64,000 bases of DNA from NCBI GenBank assembly GCA_050948885.1, contig JBMNER010000004.1:18965-82964 (forward strand). The letters are read 5' to 3'. The position numbers and the translations under genes were made by a program. This document shows, piece after piece, positions 4,555 to 63,402 of the stretch. Source of the stretch: Bacilli bacterium (GTDB lineage Bacteria; Bacillota_I; Bacilli_A; RF39; UBA660). The notes beneath the pieces were generated by a model. The model had not been told where the DNA came from, did no database searches, and worked only from the letters and a program-made list of their open reading frames with translations. The first letter of the stretch is position 1. Each line of letters opens with the position of its first letter.

Positions 4555-4779
4555 TTAAGTTTCTAAATCAAAATCAACTAACTTATCATCATTGGTTAAA
4601 ATTTTATTAACTTGTTGTTCAATATTAGTTAATTTATCACTACATTCTTTAGCTAATTTCATAGCTTCATTAAACTTATCAATCGCATCATCTAAATTGA
4701 CGTCGCCACTTTCTAATTCACGCACAATCTTTTCTAATTGTTTTAGTTTTTCTTCAAAACTTATTTCTTTCTTAACCAT
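4555..4779 (-). CDS. xseB: Exodeoxyribonuclease VII small subunit
   Basis: 74 aa; EKLKQLEKIVRELESGDVNLDDAIDKFNEA is XseB-like. Confidence 0.9.
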   Translation of the reverse strand: MVKKEISFEEKLKQLEKIVRELESGDVNLDDAIDKFNEAMKLAKECSDKLTNIEQQVNKILTNDDKLVDFDLET

Positions 4780-6445: not shown

Positions 6446-8995
6446 TTAATCATCCTTTAACATTTTCTTTAGCTCATATAGTTTATTTAAAGCCTCAATT
6501 GGGGTAATGGTAAGGGGATTAAGAGTTTGTAGTTCTTGTTCAATTAGGCTAGGTTCTGAGGCTTTAAATGGTGGTTCAAGATTAAAAGTTATTTGGTTGG
6601 TTTTGGTTAAACCATTATTATTATTTTCATAACCTTTTAAGATATGATGGGCTCTTTTAATTAAAGGAGCGGGTAAATTAGCTAATTTAGCGACATGAAT
6701 CCCATAACTTTTATCCACGGCTCCGTCTTTTACTTGATGGAGAAAAACAAGCTCACCCTCTTCTTCATAAGCACTAACATGAATGTTTTTTAAATTAGTT
6801 AGGTTTTTGTCAAGTGATGTTAATTCATGATAATGAGTAGAAAAGAGAGTTTTAGCCTTGATGTGTTCATGAATATATTCAATCATAGCTTGGGCGATAC
6901 TCATCCCATCATAAGTAGCCGTACCACGCCCTAATTCATCAAATAAAATTAAACTCTGCCTAGTCGCCTGGGTAATGGCTCTATTAGCTTCCAACATTTC
7001 CACCATAAAGGTTGATTCGCCACTTACTAAATCATCACTGGCTCCAATACGAGTAAAAATCTGATCAAAAATAGGTAGTTGAGCCGCAAGAGCGGGAACG
7101 TAACAACCTATTTGAGCCATAATAACAATTAGGGCTAATTGGCGCATATAAGTTGATTTACCAGCCATATTAGGGCCAGTAATAAGAAGGATATTAGTGT
7201 TATCATCCATTATAATATCATTAGGGACAAATTCACCAGTAGCAACTCTTTCCACTAAGGGATGACGACTACCCTTGATATTGATAGATCGTTCTTTAGT
7301 TAAAGTTGGTCTCACATAGTGATACTTTTCAGCTACAGTAGCAAAAGATTGTAAGACATCAATGGTGGCAATAATATGGGCATTCCTTTGTAACTTGGGA
7401 ATATAGGCTTTAACCTGCTCTCTAATATCTAAAAATAATTCATATTCAAGATCAATTATTTTTTCTTCGGCGCCTAAAATAAGGGCTTCTTTTTCTTTTA
7501 ATTCCGGTGTAATATAACGCTCACAATTAGCGAGAGTTTGTCTCCGTTCATAATTATATTCATCTTTAATTAAATTAATATTACCTTTACTTACTTCAAT
7601 ATAATAACCAAAAATCTTATTAAAACCAACTTTTAAGTTCTTAATACCGGTTTTCTTACGTTCCGTTTGTTCTAATTTAGTTAAGAACTTTTTACCACCA
7701 CTTCTAGCTTCCTTTAACTCATCTAAAGTTTGATTATAACCGGATTTAATTAAAAAACCTTCTTTAATTGTGATGGGTGGATTATCATAAATACTACAAT
7801 CTAATAACTGATATAAATTAATAACATCTTCTAATGGTCCTGGACCATTTATCGTTATTAAGTGTTTATTAATAGCCGGTAATACTTGAAGTGAAGTTTT
7901 TAGTTGTAATAAATCACGAGCATTAGCGTTACCATAAGCAATGCGCCCACATAACCTTTCTAAATCATAGATATTTAATAATAACTGTTGTAGCTCCGCT
8001 TTAATAATAAATTCATTTAATAAGGTAGCCACAATATCATAACGATACTTTATTTTAGTTATATCTAATAAGGGTTGTTCCAACCACTTTCTTAATAACC
8101 TTGAACCCATCGCCGTTTTTGTATGATCAAGTAACCATAATAACGAATAAGTTCTTTCTTTCAACCTTAAAGTTTCCACTAATTCTAGATTACGTTTCGT
8201 GTGAATATCCATCTTTAAATATTGGGTGCTCTCGGTAATAACTACGGGCTGCAGATGCGTTAGAGCTCTTTTTTGGGTAGCGACTAAATAGGCGAGTAAG
8301 TGTTTAACCGTTTCTTGATAACGAACATCTTTTAGCTCTCTATATAATTGATGATAATCATCATTTTCTAGCGTACCATCAAAAACACTAGCGCTCAACC
8401 CATGTTGTTGTTTTAAAATGTTAATAATCTTTTTATCAACCTTATCACTAATTACCACTTCCGTTAGATTACGATTTAAAATCTCCCCGATCACCATATC
8501 GGGATCTGGTTCCACTAATAATACATTAATCTCCCCAGTAGAGATATCAGTATAACTAATACCATAAGCATGATGAAAATCAATCACATTACCGAGATAA
8601 TTATTTTCCTTTTCATCAATTGCCTCAGCATTCATAACGGTTCCTTTACTAATGACTTGGACCACGTCTCTTTTAACTAGCCCTTTCGCGTCTTTAGCGT
8701 CTTCTAGTTGTTCACAAATAGCCACCTTATAGCCTTTGTTTAATAGCTTTTCAATATAACCATTAACCGCATGATATGGGACGCCACACATCGGAATACG
8801 TTCTTTTAAACCAGCATTTCTACCCGTTAAAGCAATTTCTAGTTCCCGGGCGGCTAAAATACCATCTTCAAAGAACATCTCATAAAAGTCGCCTAAGCGA
8901 TAAAATAAAATGACTTCTGGATAGTTGTCCTTTATTTCCATATATTGCCTCATCATCGGCGTTAATTTATTACAATCCACTTCTAATCTTTTCAC
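6446..8995 (-). CDS. mutS: DNA mismatch repair protein MutS; start ambiguous among 9004, 8995 and 8956
   Basis: Mismatch-recognition N-terminus TPMMRQYMEIK, Walker A GPNMAGKST and a complete C-terminus. An AGGTGG RBS precedes the GTG at 8995. Confidence 0.9.
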   Translation of the reverse strand: MKRLEVDCNKLTPMMRQYMEIKDNYPEVILFYRLGDFYEMFFEDGILAARELEIALTGRNAGLKERIPMCGVPYHAVNGYIEKLLNKGYKVAICEQLEDAKDAKGLVKRDVVQVISKGTVMNAEAIDEKENNYLGNVIDFHHAYGISYTDISTGEINVLLVEPDPDMVIGEILNRNLTEVVISDKVDKKIINILKQQHGLSASVFDGTLENDDYHQLYRELKDVRYQETVKHLLAYLVATQKRALTHLQPVVITESTQYLKMDIHTKRNLELVETLRLKERTYSLLWLLDHTKTAMGSRLLRKWLEQPLLDITKIKYRYDIVATLLNEFIIKAELQQLLLNIYDLERLCGRIAYGNANARDLLQLKTSLQVLPAINKHLITINGPGPLEDVINLYQLLDCSIYDNPPITIKEGFLIKSGYNQTLDELKEARSGGKKFLTKLEQTERKKTGIKNLKVGFNKIFGYYIEVSKGNINLIKDEYNYERRQTLANCERYITPELKEKEALILGAEEKIIDLEYELFLDIREQVKAYIPKLQRNAHIIATIDVLQSFATVAEKYHYVRPTLTKERSINIKGSRHPLVERVATGEFVPNDIIMDDNTNILLITGPNMAGKSTYMRQLALIVIMAQIGCYVPALAAQLPIFDQIFTRIGASDDLVSGESTFMVEMLEANRAITQATRQSLILFDELGRGTATYDGMSIAQAMIEYIHEHIKAKTLFSTHYHELTSLDKNLTNLKNIHVSAYEEEGELVFLHQVKDGAVDKSYGIHVAKLANLPAPLIKRAHHILKGYENNNNGLTKTNQITFNLEPPFKASEPSLIEQELQTLNPLTITPIEALNKLYELKKMLKDD

Positions 8996-9020
8996 AGCTA
9001 CCACCTATCTTTATTATACC

Positions 9021-9052
9021 AAAAAAAAAGAAGTTAGAAACGACTTCTTTTT
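9021..9052. terminator. Strong rho-independent terminator (AGAAGT-loop-ACTTCT flanked by A9 and T-run) ending the upstream gene before mutS
   Basis: The minus-strand reading is GAAGTcgtttctaACTTC followed by nine T. It overlaps the stop of the 9051..9473 gene. Confidence 0.7.
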
Positions 9053-9473
9053 ATCTTTGTCTTCCTTTTACTGGTGTTTGGGTAGCTTCAGTATTAGCTA
9101 CTCCTAATTGGCGTAATCGTTGGTCGGATTCTGGGTCTAAATAATCAATATCACGTAAAACACCCTCTTTATCTATTTGACATCTGGCCAAAACATTATC
9201 TAATTCTAATAATGCTTCTATTATTTCTTGATTACCATCACTTACTCGATAAAAACAAATTATATTATCGCGGTTTGGTTTATTAGGCAGACCTAAAAGC
9301 GGTCCATTAATGCTATATTTACCCCCGTTTATTTTTTTAAAATGTTCGGCTTGACCCCCATTTTTCAAAATTTCCCGTAATGATTTTATAAAGTCCCCTT
9401 CCCTAATAAGGATAAGTTCAATCTCCTGGTCTGTATTTTCCTTTTTCACTAATTCAACTTCTTTTACTGCCAC
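9051..9473 (-). CDS. Hypothetical 140-aa protein with an acidic N-terminus; no family recognised
   Basis: Clean ORF with its own strong terminator. I could not place the motifs NGGKYSINGPLLG or ICFYRVSDG. Confidence 0.45.
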   Translation of the reverse strand: MAVKEVELVKKENTDQEIELILIREGDFIKSLREILKNGGQAEHFKKINGGKYSINGPLLGLPNKPNRDNIICFYRVSDGNQEIIEALLELDNVLARCQIDKEGVLRDIDYLDPESDQRLRQLGVANTEATQTPVKGRQR

Positions 9474-9509
9474 TTTTACTACCTCCTATAAATTAAAGTG
9501 TCTTTACTT

Positions 9510-10523
9510 TTATTTCATCATTTGTAAATAATTTAAGGCATCACTAAATGTTAAAACCTTAAGTATTTGTATATTATAATTGTTTTTATCGAGTAAGTCA
9601 AGAGCTTCTTGATAATTCCCGCTTGGAGCAAGAAAAATATCCGCCTTTTTATTAACCGCTGCTTTTAGTTTATATTCTAGTCCACTAATGGACCCCACAT
9701 TTCCATTTAAATCAAGGGTTCCCGTCCCAACAATTCTTTTACCTTTAGTAATATCTTCTTTTGTTAGTTTATTATAGATAGTAAGCGCTAACATTAAACC
9801 TCCTGAGGGACCTGATTCGTTTTCCGTAAAATGATAAGTAATAACAGGGTTAGTCGTATAATCAAGTTTAGGGATAATATAAATACCCGTTATTTTATGA
9901 TTTTGGTAATTAAAAACCTTAATAGTTTTATTTTTAATCATATTAGTTTCATCTTTAACTAATAAAGATATACTATCACCTATTTTAGTTTGTTCAACCG
10001 CTTTTAGGTAATCATTAATATCCTGCATTTTCACCCTGTTGAGGCTTAAAATCTCATCTTTTACTTTTAAATTAGTCATCGCTTCTTCCGCCACATAAAC
10101 AACATAGAACTTTCTATCAGTTATCTTAACTTCTTTGTTTAATAGCTTATAAACATATGTGGTGGCATTTTGAATAGAATCAATTAAAAATAAGCGATCA
10201 CGATAACGCACATCTTCTTCCTCTTCGGTTTTTGTTCCCCCCTCTTCTGTTTTAACTAATTCCCAACTGGGGATAACATATGACAAAAGGATGGTTGGAA
10301 TAGTACCTTTTAATTCATTAACATAGGCAAAGTTAAAACTACCCTTTGGTTGATATTCATCGTCAATAGTTACTTTCTGGTTGATATTCATAATACCCCC
10401 TGAAGTATAAATATGATATGGCAAGGGATAAGTAAAACAAAGATAAAGCAAGGTAAAAAAAATAATCGGCTTGATGTTTTCCTGCAAATATTGTTTTATT
10501 TTTTCATATACTTTACTATACAA
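9510..10523 (-). CDS. Membrane-anchored PDZ / Lon-like (S16) protease, YlbL/SepM family
   Basis: N-terminal TM helix and a C-terminal Lon proteolytic motif GPSGGLMLALTIY...KLKAAVNKKADIFLAP. Confidence 0.75.
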   Translation of the reverse strand: MYSKVYEKIKQYLQENIKPIIFFTLLYLCFTYPLPYHIYTSGGIMNINQKVTIDDEYQPKGSFNFAYVNELKGTIPTILLSYVIPSWELVKTEEGGTKTEEEEDVRYRDRLFLIDSIQNATTYVYKLLNKEVKITDRKFYVVYVAEEAMTNLKVKDEILSLNRVKMQDINDYLKAVEQTKIGDSISLLVKDETNMIKNKTIKVFNYQNHKITGIYIIPKLDYTTNPVITYHFTENESGPSGGLMLALTIYNKLTKEDITKGKRIVGTGTLDLNGNVGSISGLEYKLKAAVNKKADIFLAPSGNYQEALDLLDKNNYNIQILKVLTFSDALNYLQMMK

Positions 10524-59604: not shown

Positions 59605-60470
59605 TGCGTAAAGTTAGTTTAATTGTTATTTTATTACTAATAACACTAATAACAAATGGCTGTTTTAAAAGAGATACCATGGAGGATATTGATATCTATA
59701 CAACCGCTTACCCGATTGAATATATTGTCTCTACCTTATATAAAGAACATGCCCAAATCAATAGTATTTATCCTAATGATGTTAATATTAATCAATACAC
59801 CTTAACTGAAAAACAAATAAGAGATTATAGTAAAGCCCATTTATTTATTTATAATGGTTTAAGTAAAGAAATAGATTATGCCCTTGATTTAATTAATACT
59901 AATCAAAACATAAAAATCATTGATGCGGCCATGGGTATGGAATACACAAATTATGTTGAAGAGATATGGTTAGATCCCGCTAATTTATTAATGTTAGCCC
60001 AAAACATTAGAAATGGGTTTCATGAATATATAGAAAACCCTTATTTAAAAAAAGAGATTGATGATAATTATGATTATTTAAAATTAACTATCTCAGAACT
60101 AGATGCGGAAATGAAAGATATTGTATCCGATGCGAAATATAAAACAATTGTAGTTGGATCTGATTTACTTAAGTTTTTAGAAAAATATAATTTAAATGTT
60201 ATTTCTTTAGAAGAAAATGAAGAGCTAACGGCTAAAACAATTAATGATGTGACTACTATGATTCAAAATGAGGAAATAAAATATATTTATCTAATTAATA
60301 ATGAGAAACCTAATAATACCATTAATAACTTATTAAAGGATAACAAACTCGAACTTTTATCAATTCATTCTATTAGTAACTTAAATGAAAAACAAAGAGA
60401 GAATAAAGAAGATTATATTACTCTAATAAAAGCGAATATTGAGTTGATAAAAAAAGAATTATATAAATAA
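59604..60470 (+). CDS. Lipoprotein of the ZnuA/TroA solute-binding fold, apparently lacking the canonical metal-ligand histidines
   Basis: Lipobox LITNGC. WLDPANL corresponds to the family WLDP motif. Start overlaps the yidD stop (TAATG). Confidence 0.5.
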   Translation: MRKVSLIVILLLITLITNGCFKRDTMEDIDIYTTAYPIEYIVSTLYKEHAQINSIYPNDVNINQYTLTEKQIRDYSKAHLFIYNGLSKEIDYALDLINTNQNIKIIDAAMGMEYTNYVEEIWLDPANLLMLAQNIRNGFHEYIENPYLKKEIDDNYDYLKLTISELDAEMKDIVSDAKYKTIVVGSDLLKFLEKYNLNVISLEENEELTAKTINDVTTMIQNEEIKYIYLINNEKPNNTINNLLKDNKLELLSIHSISNLNEKQRENKEDYITLIKANIELIKKELYK

Positions 60471-60473
60471 TAT

Positions 60474-60505
60474 TATCTAAAAAAACCCTTATATCTAAGG
60501 GTTTT
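60474..60505 (+). repeat. 32-nt hairpin terminator ATCTAAAAAAACCCTTATATCTAAGGGTTTTT, copy 1 of 2 identical direct repeats
   Basis: Identical 32-mer at 63031-63062. Hairpin CCCTTA-tatc-TAAGGG with flanking A and T runs. Functions as the terminator for the ZnuA-like gene. Confidence 0.6.
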
Positions 60506-60709
60506 TATTTATTAACAACCTATGTATCCTTTAGTTTAGAATATATATATATTAACCGGTTAAATCCTATTAAAGTAATTCGCTAATTTATTTTTATTTA
60601 AAAATTAAATTCATTTAAAACTCTCTTAGGTTTAAAAAATTTAATATTATTATCAATCTTATAAAACCTGTTTATCACCTTATAATTATATAGTTACCCT
60701 TTTTTTATT

Positions 60710-62674
60710 TTAAAAGTCAAAATTCAATGATTTAACAATAAATTTATTTTTAATCATAATTTCATTTATTGGTTTTAAAGGAACCTTATCTATTTGAGTA
60801 TAAAACTGTTCAACAACATCATCTTCACAAGAAATATTTCTTTTTTCCAAAATTGCCTTTATTTCGTCTTCTCGTCTATCAAAATAATCATAACTCATCG
60901 CCCCTATTGCCACTAATTTTTCACATATGTCATTTCGATTCTTTGAAATGCATTTTAAATATTGGTCACTTTGATTTAATAACCCTTCTTGATCCCATAC
61001 CTTTATATTCCCATTAAGCAAGTCACTAAAAGTTTGCCCCGTTTCATCTAATACTGAAAGGGTTGAAGCATATATCTCCCTTAATCCATACCCACAAGGT
61101 AATACCATATCGACAATAAAATGCCAAGAAACACATATTTCTTCAATAAATTTTTGGGTTATATCATCCGCCTTATTATTTTTAAAATCGACCAATTCTG
61201 AAAGTGTTTTAACAACTGAGTCATAGAAAAGATCCGTCTCTTTACAATTCTTATGTTGCGCTAAGGTTATAGCAATATTGTATATATTATTAAAATATGG
61301 TAATAACTTAAATTTGGAAATTTCAAAATACCATAAATATTTTTGCGATTGAACTACAGTCGGTGACTGTTTAAAAACTTTTCGCGTATAATATTCAACC
61401 CTATTAATAAATTCGGAAGTAACTTCTTCATCTAAATGAACAATTAATCCATTAATTGTAGGCTCATATAATACAGTTTGTTCCTCTATCTCTATCGGAA
61501 TTATAAAATCAAAACAATAAAGCTCTCCAAATTCCATTTCCTTTTTTATATCAATATTAAATTGAACTTTTTCCGAAATAATTTTGCCATTGGTCGCATC
61601 AAGAAGAATTTTTGTCCCGGTCGGAAAGAGGGACATAGCATCTTTATAGTTAACAACACATGGCTTACCCATTTCTCTAGCAACTATAGCCGCATGTGAA
61701 AGTATAGAGCCTTCTTCAGTTATAATACCGCTAGCTTTCTTTATGGCTGGTAAATACTCCGTATTAGTAGCCGCAGCTACTAATATATAGTCTGAGGGAA
61801 AATTTTTAATTAGCTTTAGAATTTCTTCATCATCTAAATTTTCATCAATAACATAAGTTTTACCACGCGATATGCCAGGTGACGCTATTATCCCTTTTTC
61901 ATTACTTTGTTTTTTTATAAAAACTTTACTAGTTATTGGTCTAGCTTGAACTACATACGGATTATACTCTTCATCAACACACCATTCTAAATCCATCGGG
62001 GTTTCAAACCCATCAATAATTGTTTGGAAATGAGGCATTAAATTTTCAAGGGCTTTTATATCTAAAATTTTACCTACGAAAGATAAACTTTCTTGGTTTA
62101 TTTTTCCCTCTTTATTTATTTGAAAAGTTATTCTTGATGGAGTAATCTTCCCGCTAACTAATTGGTCAGCTAATCCTTCAACACATTCAATCAAAAAGAC
62201 TTTTGAACCATCTAAATCTATGGCCTCAGTAAATGCCACGCCAGAGATTGTGGGATTAACCATTTCCTGAATTATTATATTCATTTCTTGGTTTTTATTA
62301 TCATACGCATTAACTATTTCTGTTTCGGCACTTGCCCTAACATAGGAAATAGCTTTCAATACTTCTTCTAACTCATTATTAACATTTAACATTGTTTTAA
62401 ATATCCCGGCAAAAGACTTCCCCTGGCCATCTTCCGAAGACGCCGAAGAACGAACCGCTATTTTTTTACTTTTAGATAAATTATTTAGAAAATCTAAAAA
62501 TTCATTTATCGCTTGTTTATCTTTTTTTAAAAGTAAACCATCTATCATATTACTAGAAATCGCAAATCCTTTAGGTATTGGGATGCCTAATCTAACTAGT
62601 TGTGATAATCCTTTTGCTTTACCGCCATAACTCTCACCAGCATTAAAAATATCAGTTATAAAGAAATTTCTCAT
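60710..62674 (-). CDS. PEP-utilising-enzyme family protein: PPDK-type nucleotide-binding N-domain plus phosphohistidine swivel domain plus an uncharacterised ~290-aa C-terminal domain; no PEP/pyruvate TIM-barrel
   Basis: GGKAKGLSQL...PKGF, AVRSSASSEDGQGKSFAGIFKT and IIQEMVNPTISGVAFT form the PPDK_N domain. LVAAATNTEYLPAIKKASGIITEEGSILSHAAIVAREMGKPCVV is the mobile His domain. The C-terminal domain is Cys-containing and unassigned. Confidence 0.6.
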   Translation of the reverse strand: MRNFFITDIFNAGESYGGKAKGLSQLVRLGIPIPKGFAISSNMIDGLLLKKDKQAINEFLDFLNNLSKSKKIAVRSSASSEDGQGKSFAGIFKTMLNVNNELEEVLKAISYVRASAETEIVNAYDNKNQEMNIIIQEMVNPTISGVAFTEAIDLDGSKVFLIECVEGLADQLVSGKITPSRITFQINKEGKINQESLSFVGKILDIKALENLMPHFQTIIDGFETPMDLEWCVDEEYNPYVVQARPITSKVFIKKQSNEKGIIASPGISRGKTYVIDENLDDEEILKLIKNFPSDYILVAAATNTEYLPAIKKASGIITEEGSILSHAAIVAREMGKPCVVNYKDAMSLFPTGTKILLDATNGKIISEKVQFNIDIKKEMEFGELYCFDFIIPIEIEEQTVLYEPTINGLIVHLDEEVTSEFINRVEYYTRKVFKQSPTVVQSQKYLWYFEISKFKLLPYFNNIYNIAITLAQHKNCKETDLFYDSVVKTLSELVDFKNNKADDITQKFIEEICVSWHFIVDMVLPCGYGLREIYASTLSVLDETGQTFSDLLNGNIKVWDQEGLLNQSDQYLKCISKNRNDICEKLVAIGAMSYDYFDRREDEIKAILEKRNISCEDDVVEQFYTQIDKVPLKPINEIMIKNKFIVKSLNFDF

Positions 62675-62703: not shown

Positions 62704-62735
62704 AAAACTATATCACTAACTAAAGCGATATAGTT
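62704..62735. promoter_or_regulatory. Perfect 10-bp inverted repeat AAACTATATC-N12-GATATAGTTT between the small upstream ORF and the PEP-utilising-family gene
   Basis: Exact reverse-complement arms. Candidate operator or attenuator in the gene's 5' region. Confidence 0.4.
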
Positions 62736-62741
62736 TATAAT

Positions 62742-62842
62742 TTAACATCTTTGAGCTTCACAAAGTTGTAATAACTCTTTTTCAATTGCATCAAGTGAAA
62801 CGGTTCGCCTTGAATTAATAATCCACTTAATAAATTTTATCA
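62742..62842 (-). CDS. Possible 33-aa ORF (MIKFIKWIINSRRTVSLDAIEKELLQLCEAQRC) with AAGAGG ribosome-binding site
   Basis: RBS with 7-nt spacing. No family recognised. May be spurious. Confidence 0.2.
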
Positions 62843-63030
62843 TAAAATAACCTCTTTTTAATAATTTAGAATGGTTTATTTACTTAGTTTTGTATATTAA
62901 CATAAAACATTTCAAGAATCAAGCCTTTTTACCAATCTTCCCCATGTGGTGTTAATAACTCGCCTCTTTTATTATATGTTTTATATGCTTAATATTTATA
63001 AAAGACTTATAATATTATTAATTTTTAATC

Positions 63031-63062
63031 ATCTAAAAAAACCCTTATATCTAAGGGTTTTT
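63031..63062 (+). repeat. Second identical copy of the 32-nt hairpin repeat, 9 nt from the 3' end of tRNA-Ser; bidirectional terminator for the tRNA array
   Basis: Exact match to 60474-60505. Confidence 0.6.
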
Positions 63063-63071
63063 GTTTTCTTT

Positions 63072-63162
63072 TGGCGGAGCAGGAGAGATTTGAACTCTCG
63101 CACCGGTTACCCGATCTACGCCCTTAGCAGGGGCGCCTCTTCAGCCTCTTGAGTACTGCTCC
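63072..63162 (-). tRNA. tRNA-Ser (anticodon GCT), type II with long variable arm, CCA encoded
   Basis: Manually folded: acceptor GGAGCAG/CTGCTCC, anticodon loop CTGCTAA, long variable arm, T-loop TTCAAAT. Confidence 0.85.
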
Positions 63163-63163
63163 T

Positions 63164-63239
63164 TGGTGACCCGTACGGGATTTGAACCCGTGAATGCATG
63201 CGTGAAAGGCATGTGTGTTAACCGCTTCACCAACGGGCC
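63164..63239 (-). tRNA. tRNA-Glu (anticodon TTC), CCA encoded
   Basis: Acceptor GGCCCGT/ACGGGTC, anticodon loop CTTTCAC, T-loop TTCAAAT. Confidence 0.85.
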
Positions 63240-63243
63240 ATAA

Positions 63244-63319
63244 TGGCGCCTGATGTAGGACTCGAACCTACGACAATCCGGTTAACAGCCGGGTACTCTA
63301 CCAACTGAGCTAATCAGGC
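63244..63319 (-). tRNA. tRNA-Asn (anticodon GTT), CCA encoded
   Basis: Acceptor GCCTGAT/ATCAGGC, anticodon stem-loop CCGGCTGTTAACCGG, T-loop TTCGAGT. Confidence 0.85.
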
Positions 63320-63325
63320 AAATAA

Positions 63326-63402
63326 TGGTGGGCTTGAATGGACTTGAACCATCGACCTCACGCTTATCAGGCGTGTGCTCTAACCAGCTGAGCTACAAGC
63401 CC
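63326..63402 (-). tRNA. tRNA-Ile (anticodon GAT), CCA encoded
   Basis: GGGCTTGTAGCTCAGCTGGTTAGAGC...CCTGATAAG...GGTTCAAGTCC is the classic tRNA-Ile(GAT) sequence. Confidence 0.9.

Follow-up and report, generated by a model that had tools for sequence, protein, structure and literature searches.

What is the substrate of an enzyme of the phosphoenolpyruvate (PEP)-utilising family that has no PEP/pyruvate barrel? The question is raised by a gene on the minus strand of a 64,000-nucleotide stretch of DNA from an uncultured Bacilli bacterium (GenBank assembly GCA_050948885.1, contig JBMNER010000004.1, positions 18,965 to 82,964), which was analyzed as a whole and is referred to here as the window. 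The gene (60710..62674, with its stop codon at 60710-60712) encodes a dikinase-like protein of 654 residues, recognized by its open reading frame (ORF) and by Pfam matches to PPDK_N and PEP-utilizers. The answer that we favor, at a probability of roughly 0.55, is that the protein is a maturase of the kind that acts on peptides made by the ribosome and modified after translation (RiPPs), and that it would pass a phosphate from ATP, via His327, to the C-terminal Arg-Cys of a peptide encoded just ahead of it. Rather than an enzyme of metabolism or antibiotic resistance, the gene most likely signals a system for peptide modification (RiPP-like) that has not been described. What appears to be new is a phosphotransferase of the PEP-utilising family that carries a new acceptor domain and stands in a genetic setting like that of RiPPs. 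Both the structural and the genomic observations behind this proposal are solid, and they were unexpected; the chemistry we infer.

Two of the three parts of the enzyme are familiar. The ATP-grasp nucleotide-binding domain, of the PPDK_N type, spans residues 1-255 (61910..62674, minus strand); PF01326 matches it at residues 54-255 (E 5.2e-35), and Foldseek pairs it with PpsA (2ols), PPDK (1dik) and the rifampicin phosphotransferase RPH. The swivelling phospho-histidine domain follows at residues 256-372 (61559..61909, minus strand), with a match to PF00391 (PEP-utilizers mobile domain) at residues 293-363 (E 8.6e-24) and an alignment to the His domain of PpsA (8a8e). Beyond these two, the enzyme has no further significant Pfam match. 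An alignment of 45 diverse homologs shows R75, S76, S77, E81, D82, Q136, D228, E230, Q243 and R245 to be invariant in the nucleotide-binding part, and T319, G322, L325, H327, A328, I330, R333 and E334 in the swivel part. The catalytic residue among the latter, His327 (codon 61694-61696, minus strand), is the histidine of the motif GSILSHAAIVAREMG. As judged from sequence, the ATP-grasp and swivel-His machinery of the enzyme is intact. The ratio of nonsynonymous to synonymous substitution rates (dN/dS, omega) is 0.15-0.22 for the enzyme between diverged homologs and 0.12-0.16 for its catalytic part, and the AlphaFold2 (AF2) model of the full-length protein reaches a mean predicted local distance difference test score (pLDDT) of 90.8 and a predicted template-modelling score (pTM) of 0.83. 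Assignment of the protein as a putative non-canonical phosphotransferase of the PEP-utilising family is supported.

The third part, residues 373-654 (60713..61558, minus strand), is the one without known relatives. Matches of the enzyme to PDB sequences, the best of them to PpsA, end near residue ~380. The C-terminal domain (C-domain, ~373-654) finds no Pfam model even at E 10, no NCBIfam model, no PDB sequence in single-sequence or profile searches, and no PDB entry by Foldseek below E 0.5. Modeled alone with AF2 (pLDDT 94.2, pTM 0.91), it is composed of a three-stranded sheet with helices at residues 388-474 and then a long helical bundle. When 1.84 billion representative proteins were searched exhaustively with HMMER, it turned up in only 45 clusters, nearly all of which are proteins of 607-677 residues that carry the domain at ~370-640; hence the C-domain is rare and specific to this architecture. 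Profile-profile comparison extends it to archaeal proteins of 675-698 residues (probability 95-96%), and a metagenome scan with a narrowed C-domain alignment returned 5 loci. In the alignment of the 45 homologs, R431 and E512 are invariant in this domain, and E404, K445, E451, G528, Y597, R601 and Y625 nearly so; omega values of 0.21-0.40 indicate purifying selection. In the model, the PEP/pyruvate barrel is replaced by an undescribed conserved domain. On the basis of the AF2 model, the conservation and the negative searches, we propose that it is a family-specific domain that binds the peptide or another acceptor. Sequence tests for a RiPP recognition element (RRE) in residues 388-474 were negative.

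An original prediction for this gene, drawn from the DNA letters, anticipated much of this architecture. Its ORF is exact (minus strand, 654 residues), and the PPDK-type N-domain and phosphohistidine swivel that it described are those of PF01326 and PF00391, with His327 in its motif. It had stated that the PEP/pyruvate TIM barrel is missing; indeed, PF02896 is found in the enzyme neither by Pfam (E 10) nor by AF2 fold, Foldseek or profile search. The unassigned C-terminal region that it pointed to comes to ~280 residues, for which Foldseek and profile searches give no PDB match, and its idea that this region is the acceptor-recognition module gains support from the replacement of the barrel by a conserved domain. 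The cysteines that it noted in the region carry no weight, as no C-domain cysteine is conserved (19/45 sequences at the best position). It had also allowed for a truncated pseudogene or for a merely divergent PEP synthase. As the full length is conserved in >100 homologs, the gene is neither of these, and the profile and fold searches find no hidden barrel.

Whether the enzyme is instead a PEP synthase (pyruvate,water dikinase) that has diverged but still serves central metabolism can be judged from the same data. PpsA gives the best matches among NCBIfam models and PDB sequences, some homologs go by the name "pyruvate,water dikinase" at JGI, and the homolog of Ca. Mancarchaeum is annotated "pyruvate phosphate dikinase". 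PpsA and PPDK have the same N-terminal order, from ATP-grasp to swivel His, with all catalytic motifs, and they are the best matches by fold as well as by sequence. However, the N-domain of the enzyme is shorter (~255 residues), the TIM barrel of PpsA and PPDK is absent, with an unrelated beta3 plus helical domain of ~280 residues in the enzyme, and the NCBIfam scores stay far below the cutoffs (NF005057, 166.8 vs 598 bits; TIGR01418, 159 vs 740; TIGR01828, 59 vs 843). The metabolic reading is effectively excluded.

A role in resistance, as the original prediction had suggested alongside other accessory functions, requires more consideration. The enzyme would then be an RPH-like phosphotransferase of xenobiotics or antibiotics, whose C-domain binds a small molecule. 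The superfamily is common to rifampicin phosphotransferase, HpeI and flavonoid/phenol kinases, and the gene lies in a segment between terminator repeats, beside tRNAs, with a GC content of 27% vs ~31%. RPH and PigC/RedH are, moreover, PPDK-superfamily proteins in which the barrel has been swapped for another acceptor domain and which act on non-pyruvate substrates. RPH and PigC, however, have the acceptor domain in the middle and the His domain at the C-terminus, whereas in the window enzyme the order is ATP-grasp, His (central, 293-363) and acceptor domain (C-terminal), a difference from RPH that had been correctly predicted. The NCBIfam models for PpsA, PPDK, RPH, PigC and RedH all match the ATP-grasp and His parts only, and the scores are low both for RPH (NF041857, 113 bits vs a cutoff of 999) and for PigC/RedH (NF052631, 155.5 vs 1300; NF052632, 136.7 vs 1350). 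The C-domain resembles the rifampicin-binding domain of RPH neither in sequence nor in fold (no Foldseek match to 5fbs or 5hv1), nor is it like any PDB fold, and scans of plasmids and of viral contigs found no members of the family in either. We know of no peptide gene that is associated with the RPH and PigC/RedH families, and an RPH-like function would leave unexplained the selected linkage of the enzyme to a peptide gene and to RiPP-type partners that is described below. With a gene tied to such neighbors and a C-domain unlike the rifampicin-binding one, we regard an RPH-like function as quite unlikely. An origin in a defense system or a phage was rejected; the enzyme has no PADLOC match.

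The link to a peptide is provided by the gene that precedes the enzyme. An ORF of 33 codons (MIKFIKWIINSRRTVSLDAIEKELLQLCEAQRC; 62742..62843, minus strand) is located 68 nt upstream of the enzyme gene on the same strand; it follows an AAGAGG Shine-Dalgarno sequence, and its product ends in ...LLQLCEAQRC. The ORF, its Shine-Dalgarno sequence, the homologous ORFs and the selection acting on them are the basis on which we propose this peptide as precursor or substrate. The "modification function" of the original prediction is in this respect upheld in spirit, with the correction that the likely substrate is the co-encoded peptide, whose ORF it had overlooked. The peptide ORF is called as a gene on 10 contigs. 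A small ORF that ends in R-[C/S/T]-stop, either no more than 200 nt away from the enzyme gene or at the head of an adjacent ThiF operon, is present at 10 of the 12 distinct loci, and enzyme identity over the peptide-bearing loci spans 29-100%. As a control, we used 80 loci of ordinary PpsA relatives, retrieved via the generic swivel motif SHAAI[VI][SA]RE; only 1.3% of their 7,619 small ORFs have this ending.

Across the family the peptides are 29-49 residues long, match no Pfam or NCBIfam model, and are mutually unalignable save for the C-terminal R-[C/S/T]. Given by decreasing identity of the enzyme to that of the window, the endings at the homologous loci (which carry L numbers) are ...LLESCEAQRT at L001 (53%), ...LLAICE[TA]HRS at L086, L002, L094 and L095 (46-48%), ...VYFSKRC at L088 (40%), ...LLSMCATHRS at L100 (37%), ...SLMVMRC at L089 (36%) and ...EALMTMRT at the marine locus L090 (29-31%). 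The closer clade keeps a longer motif, LLxxCE[AT][QH]R[CST]. Between loci whose enzymes are 59-82% identical, dN of the peptide gene is 0.014-0.067 vs a dS of 0.3-1.0, which argues that the peptide is translated and is more constrained than the enzyme. These comparisons tie the enzyme, both by gene linkage and in its evolution, to the peptide, of which the C-terminal Arg-(Cys/Ser/Thr) is the sole universal feature.

Gene callers overlook such peptides. At L100 the ORF had not been called earlier: it consists of 31 codons (MKSIAKTFKAKKVNVSLSEAKLLSMCATHRS; L100 2327-2422), and 57 nt separate it from the gene of the enzyme homolog P0054, which lies downstream. The L100 contig is binned as "Nitrososphaerota archaeon", a binning that may be doubtful.

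In the window, a scan for terminator-like elements and the fold energy reveal that the genes of peptide and enzyme are separated by a 13-bp stem-loop followed by a U-rich tract (62705..62736, minus strand; dG -23.1 kcal/mol, z = -3.7), of the leaky-terminator or processing type. Equivalent hairpins between peptide and enzyme occur in seven homologous operons and were present in every operon examined (L001 ~1227-1262, L002 ~7937-7975, L086 ~2164-2196 and L088 ~4692-4747, also L094 and L095); compensatory changes are seen in 3/11 pairs. The element looks like a leaky terminator that would set the ratio of peptide to enzyme, and by analogy its position is the one that such hairpins usually take between precursor and maturase in RiPP operons. 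On balance, we read the locus as a probable two-gene operon composed of a precursor-type peptide gene, a leaky hairpin and the gene of a dikinase-like maturase.

The same arrangement could have a regulatory meaning. In that case the small ORF would be a leader peptide, acting by ribosome stalling or attenuation through the hairpin, and the enzyme would phosphorylate some other small molecule or a protein. What favors this explanation is in part what weighs against a maturase. The small ORF is always the first in its operon, which is compatible with a leader peptide, and in the window and six other operons the terminator-like hairpin with its U-tract comes directly before the ribosome-binding site of the enzyme. 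No adjacent R-[CST] ORF is found in the 605-residue P0078 subfamily (L004) or beside the archaeal 698-residue proteins (L099), and with two branches of the family devoid of the ORF, the enzyme can evidently exist without a neighboring peptide gene. One cluster also contains an ABC-F gene, a class often under the control of leader peptides. Three further points count against the maturase: the sample of loci is small, at 12 distinct ones; the beta3-alpha3 subdomain of the C-domain is RRE-like solely in the order of its secondary-structure elements; and no exporter, protease or ThiF that might handle a modified peptide is near the pair in the window.

Yet a leader peptide does not account for a conservation that is concentrated at the extreme C-terminus, in R-[C/S/T], of otherwise unalignable peptides of 29-49 residues, and no alternative anti-terminator pairing is evident. 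At L089 and L090 the ORF is the first gene of the ThiF operon, and transcription of the enzyme is separate from it, so that the ORF does not control the enzyme in cis at these loci. The partner enzymes in relatives (MccB-like ThiF, rSAM/SPASM, that is, radical-SAM/SPASM, and M3 peptidase) are, furthermore, classic peptide-modifying enzymes. We consider the leader peptide an unlikely explanation.

These partners are a recurrent feature of the family. The operons of relatives repeatedly hold a ThiF-family adenylyltransferase, an SBP_bac_5-like protein, a pyridoxal-phosphate (PLP)-decarboxylase-like protein (nspC/lysA-like) and a protein of ~400 residues (u401), and this set is conserved across distant clusters (L001 3254-8412; L002 9972-14432; L088 122-4498). 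More variable are a radical-SAM/SPASM or B12-rSAM enzyme, an M3 peptidase, a methyltransferase and a 2-oxoglutarate-Fe oxygenase. The partner ThiF aligns with MccB over the whole adenylation domain and has a similar N-terminal extension of ~105 residues; the PADLOC models, which do not match the enzyme to any defense system, match this ThiF through generic E1 models only. The rSAM/SPASM partners match models of peptide maturases, with similarity of the MftC/PqqE type. Neither u401 nor the SBP5-like partner has sequence relatives in the PDB. The SBP_bac_5-like protein is cytoplasmic-looking. Of the features generally expected of a RiPP locus, the adjacent co-conserved peptide and its conserved C-terminal motif are present at 10 of the 12 loci, and the association with tailoring enzymes is seen in the relatives and not in the 64-kb window.

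From the gene set of the relatives, tblastn detects nothing in the window beyond the peptide and the enzyme, and no ThiF; the pair sits between a gene for a znuA-like lipoprotein and a tRNA cluster. In a second lineage (L095) the pair is again alone, between a GTPase gene and that of RNase HII. As two independent lineages keep just the peptide and the enzyme, with housekeeping genes around them, this pair would be the functional core of the system.

A sub-variant of our main explanation is that the peptide serves as a disposable scaffold, as for pearlins, mycofactocin or fosfazinomycin. Its C-terminal Arg-Xaa would be converted to a small phosphorylated or modified dipeptide-like metabolite and released by a peptidase, and the end product would be a small molecule (an antimetabolite or a cofactor). 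Only the last two residues of the peptide are invariant across the family, the clusters contain peptidases of the M3 family as well as rSAM/SPASM enzymes that show similarity of the MftC/PqqE type, and there is precedent for short, overlooked scaffold peptides that undergo C-terminal modification (PMC13622209). On the other hand, neither the window nor L095 has a peptidase beside the pair, and the retention of LLxxCE[AT][QH]R[CST] by the closer clade suggests that more than a dipeptide matters. The scaffold is a plausible variant, if a rather unlikely one.

For the maturase, the following sequence of events can be envisioned. The ATP-grasp domain would use ATP and load His327 with phosphate, as its conserved catalytic residues and its homology to PpsA/PPDK suggest. 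A swing of the His domain would next bring it to the C-terminal helical domain, which occupies the place of the PEP/pyruvate barrel. Co-occurrence and co-conservation suggest that the C-domain binds the co-encoded peptide and presents its C-terminal Arg-(Cys/Ser/Thr)-COOH, and the charged residues R431, E512, K445, E451 and R601 would suit the binding of an Arg-Xaa-carboxylate together with a phosphate. The phosphoryl group would be transferred to the terminus of the peptide. As Cys, Ser and Thr are interchangeable at the terminal position, the chemistry would be expected on the side chain; this side chain is, speculatively, the likeliest acceptor, for instance by O- or S-phosphorylation, and elimination could possibly come next. 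Transfer from a phospho-histidine to a cysteine has a precedent in the phosphotransferase system. Two alternatives are likewise speculative: the transfer might activate the Arg-Xaa amide or the terminal carboxylate (as an acyl-phosphate) for a dehydrative step, or the side chain might attack the preceding amide, with the phosphate leaving, in a YcaO-like manner. PigC is a precedent for dehydrative activation. In many relatives, the MccB-like ThiF and the rSAM/SPASM, PLP-decarboxylase-like, SBP5-like and M3 peptidase partners would elaborate and release the product; the organism of the window retains just the peptide-enzyme core within the 64 kb.

How does this proposal compare with the systems that are known? 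TalE is a PPDK-like kinase that N-phosphorylates a dipeptide and thereby makes the N-P bond of talopeptin/phosphoramidon, and Cj1418 is a PPDK-like L-glutamine kinase that phosphorylates the amide of an amino acid in capsule biosynthesis (PMC6482885). Compared by description, these phospho-histidine kinases are the closest functional precedent for a dikinase that acts on a peptide; they differ in that TalE acts on a dipeptide of non-ribosomal origin and Cj1418 on a free amino acid, and not on a gene-encoded peptide of 29-49 residues. In the full-text literature, the coverage of which was incomplete, no pairing of a PPDK/PpsA-like enzyme with a ribosomal peptide turned up.

With microcin C/MccB, PaaA and GrcB, the clusters of the relatives share the coupling of a short ribosomal peptide to an MccB-like ThiF, and some add methyltransferase and PLP-decarboxylase genes, as microcin C does with MccD/MccE. 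Identity of these partners with MccD/MccE was rejected, as the matches are to a generic class-I methyltransferase and to nspC-like proteins, with none to microcin plasmids. The chemistry of microcin C requires a terminal Asn, whereas the peptides of this family all end in Cys, Ser or Thr; the window, unlike the ThiF RiPP pathways, is without a ThiF by tblastn; and the literature reports no dikinase-like enzyme for the microcin C, pantocin and GrcB pathways. GrcB links Glu(i) with a Cys(i+4) at the C-terminus (PMC12596934), and the window peptide has the same spacing between E29 and C33. A GrcB-like thiolactone from Glu to the C-terminal Cys was rejected as the general mechanism, as L088, L089 and L090 lack the Glu.

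A mechanistic analogy can also be drawn to enzymes of another kind. YcaO cyclodehydratases and the kinases of LanL/LanKC perform ATP-dependent O-phosphorylation on ribosomal peptides with Cys, Ser and Thr, and the substrates of YcaO and of lanthipeptide kinases typically have a fixed position at which Cys, Ser and Thr can replace one another. The analogy is limited to the mechanism, as the folds are completely unlike and the system described here has no domain of the YcaO, kinase or lyase type.

A bolder proposal we advance tentatively and would put at somewhat less than even odds. The protein would be the class-defining enzyme of an unrecognized RiPP family, in which the barrel has been exchanged for a peptide-binding domain and a phospho-histidine activates the C-terminal Arg-(Cys/Ser/Thr), a third, structurally unrelated way, after YcaO and the lanthipeptide kinases, to activate Cys/Ser/Thr sites of peptides with ATP; in the full clusters it would feed the MccB-like adenylyltransferase, toward a product that targets translation or acts as an antimetabolite. 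If the peptide is the substrate, then the swivelling-histidine dikinase is a new class of enzyme for the modification of ribosomal peptides, and the C-domain represents a new fold by which a peptide or acceptor is recognized. A handle for genome mining follows: a PPDK_N plus PEP-utilizers protein of ~610-700 residues beside a small ORF ending in R-C/S/T. Uncharacterized clusters in gut and environmental Bacilli and in other uncultured lineages can be found with it. The minimal two-gene version in the window is a very tractable system for the chemistry.

The ABC-F gene mentioned above is the last gene of one full cluster (L002 14442-16106, the same as L092 15311-16972). With 444 bits vs an NCBIfam cutoff of 380, its product scores as "ribosomal protection-like ABC-F". 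This hints at an antibiotic product, which may target the ribosome while the ABC-F provides self-immunity.

Directly upstream of the pair in the window there is a cluster of four tRNA genes (Ile-GAT, Asn-GTT, Glu-TTC and Ser-GCT; 63072-63402, minus strand), which ends at the right-hand copy of a 39-nt repeat (63028..63066), a terminator-like hairpin located directly after tRNA-Ser and upstream of the peptide gene. The left-hand copy (60472..60510), a bidirectional terminator-like hairpin, is downstream of the znuA-like gene and likewise of the enzyme gene. The two copies are 95% identical, with the core AAAAACCCTTATATCTAAGGGTTTTT; they are the sole ones in the window, and the identity between them stops immediately beyond their ends. 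The GC content over the enzyme gene (60001-62000) is 27% vs ~31% in the rest of the window, which provides mild compositional support for a foreign origin. Repeats and composition are compatible with a two-gene module that was inserted at a terminator. The original prediction had described flanking repeats and tRNAs, and both are there; of its repeat-flanked cassette the repeats are real, and near-identical strains show the same pair at the same site. These strains, 99-100% identical, are the only related contigs that were retrieved.

Two branches of the family have other surroundings. In L004 and L005 (P0078 subfamily, 605-616 residues), the enzyme gene at 8001-9818 is preceded by three aminoacyl-tRNA-synthetase-like genes and two Peptidase_S51 genes and is followed by a PfkB-family kinase; the substrate of this subfamily may be encoded elsewhere or may be different. 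L099 is Ca. Mancarchaeum acidiphilum (CP019964.1), where the gene at 8001-10097 encodes the 698-residue protein annotated "pyruvate phosphate dikinase". The protein carries the new C-domain and not the PEP/pyruvate barrel (hhalign probability 95%). This annotation, and the metabolic inference made from it, are probably wrong, and recognition of the family would correct the names "pyruvate,water dikinase" and "pyruvate phosphate dikinase" where they suggest, wrongly, that organisms with reduced genomes such as this one are capable of gluconeogenesis.

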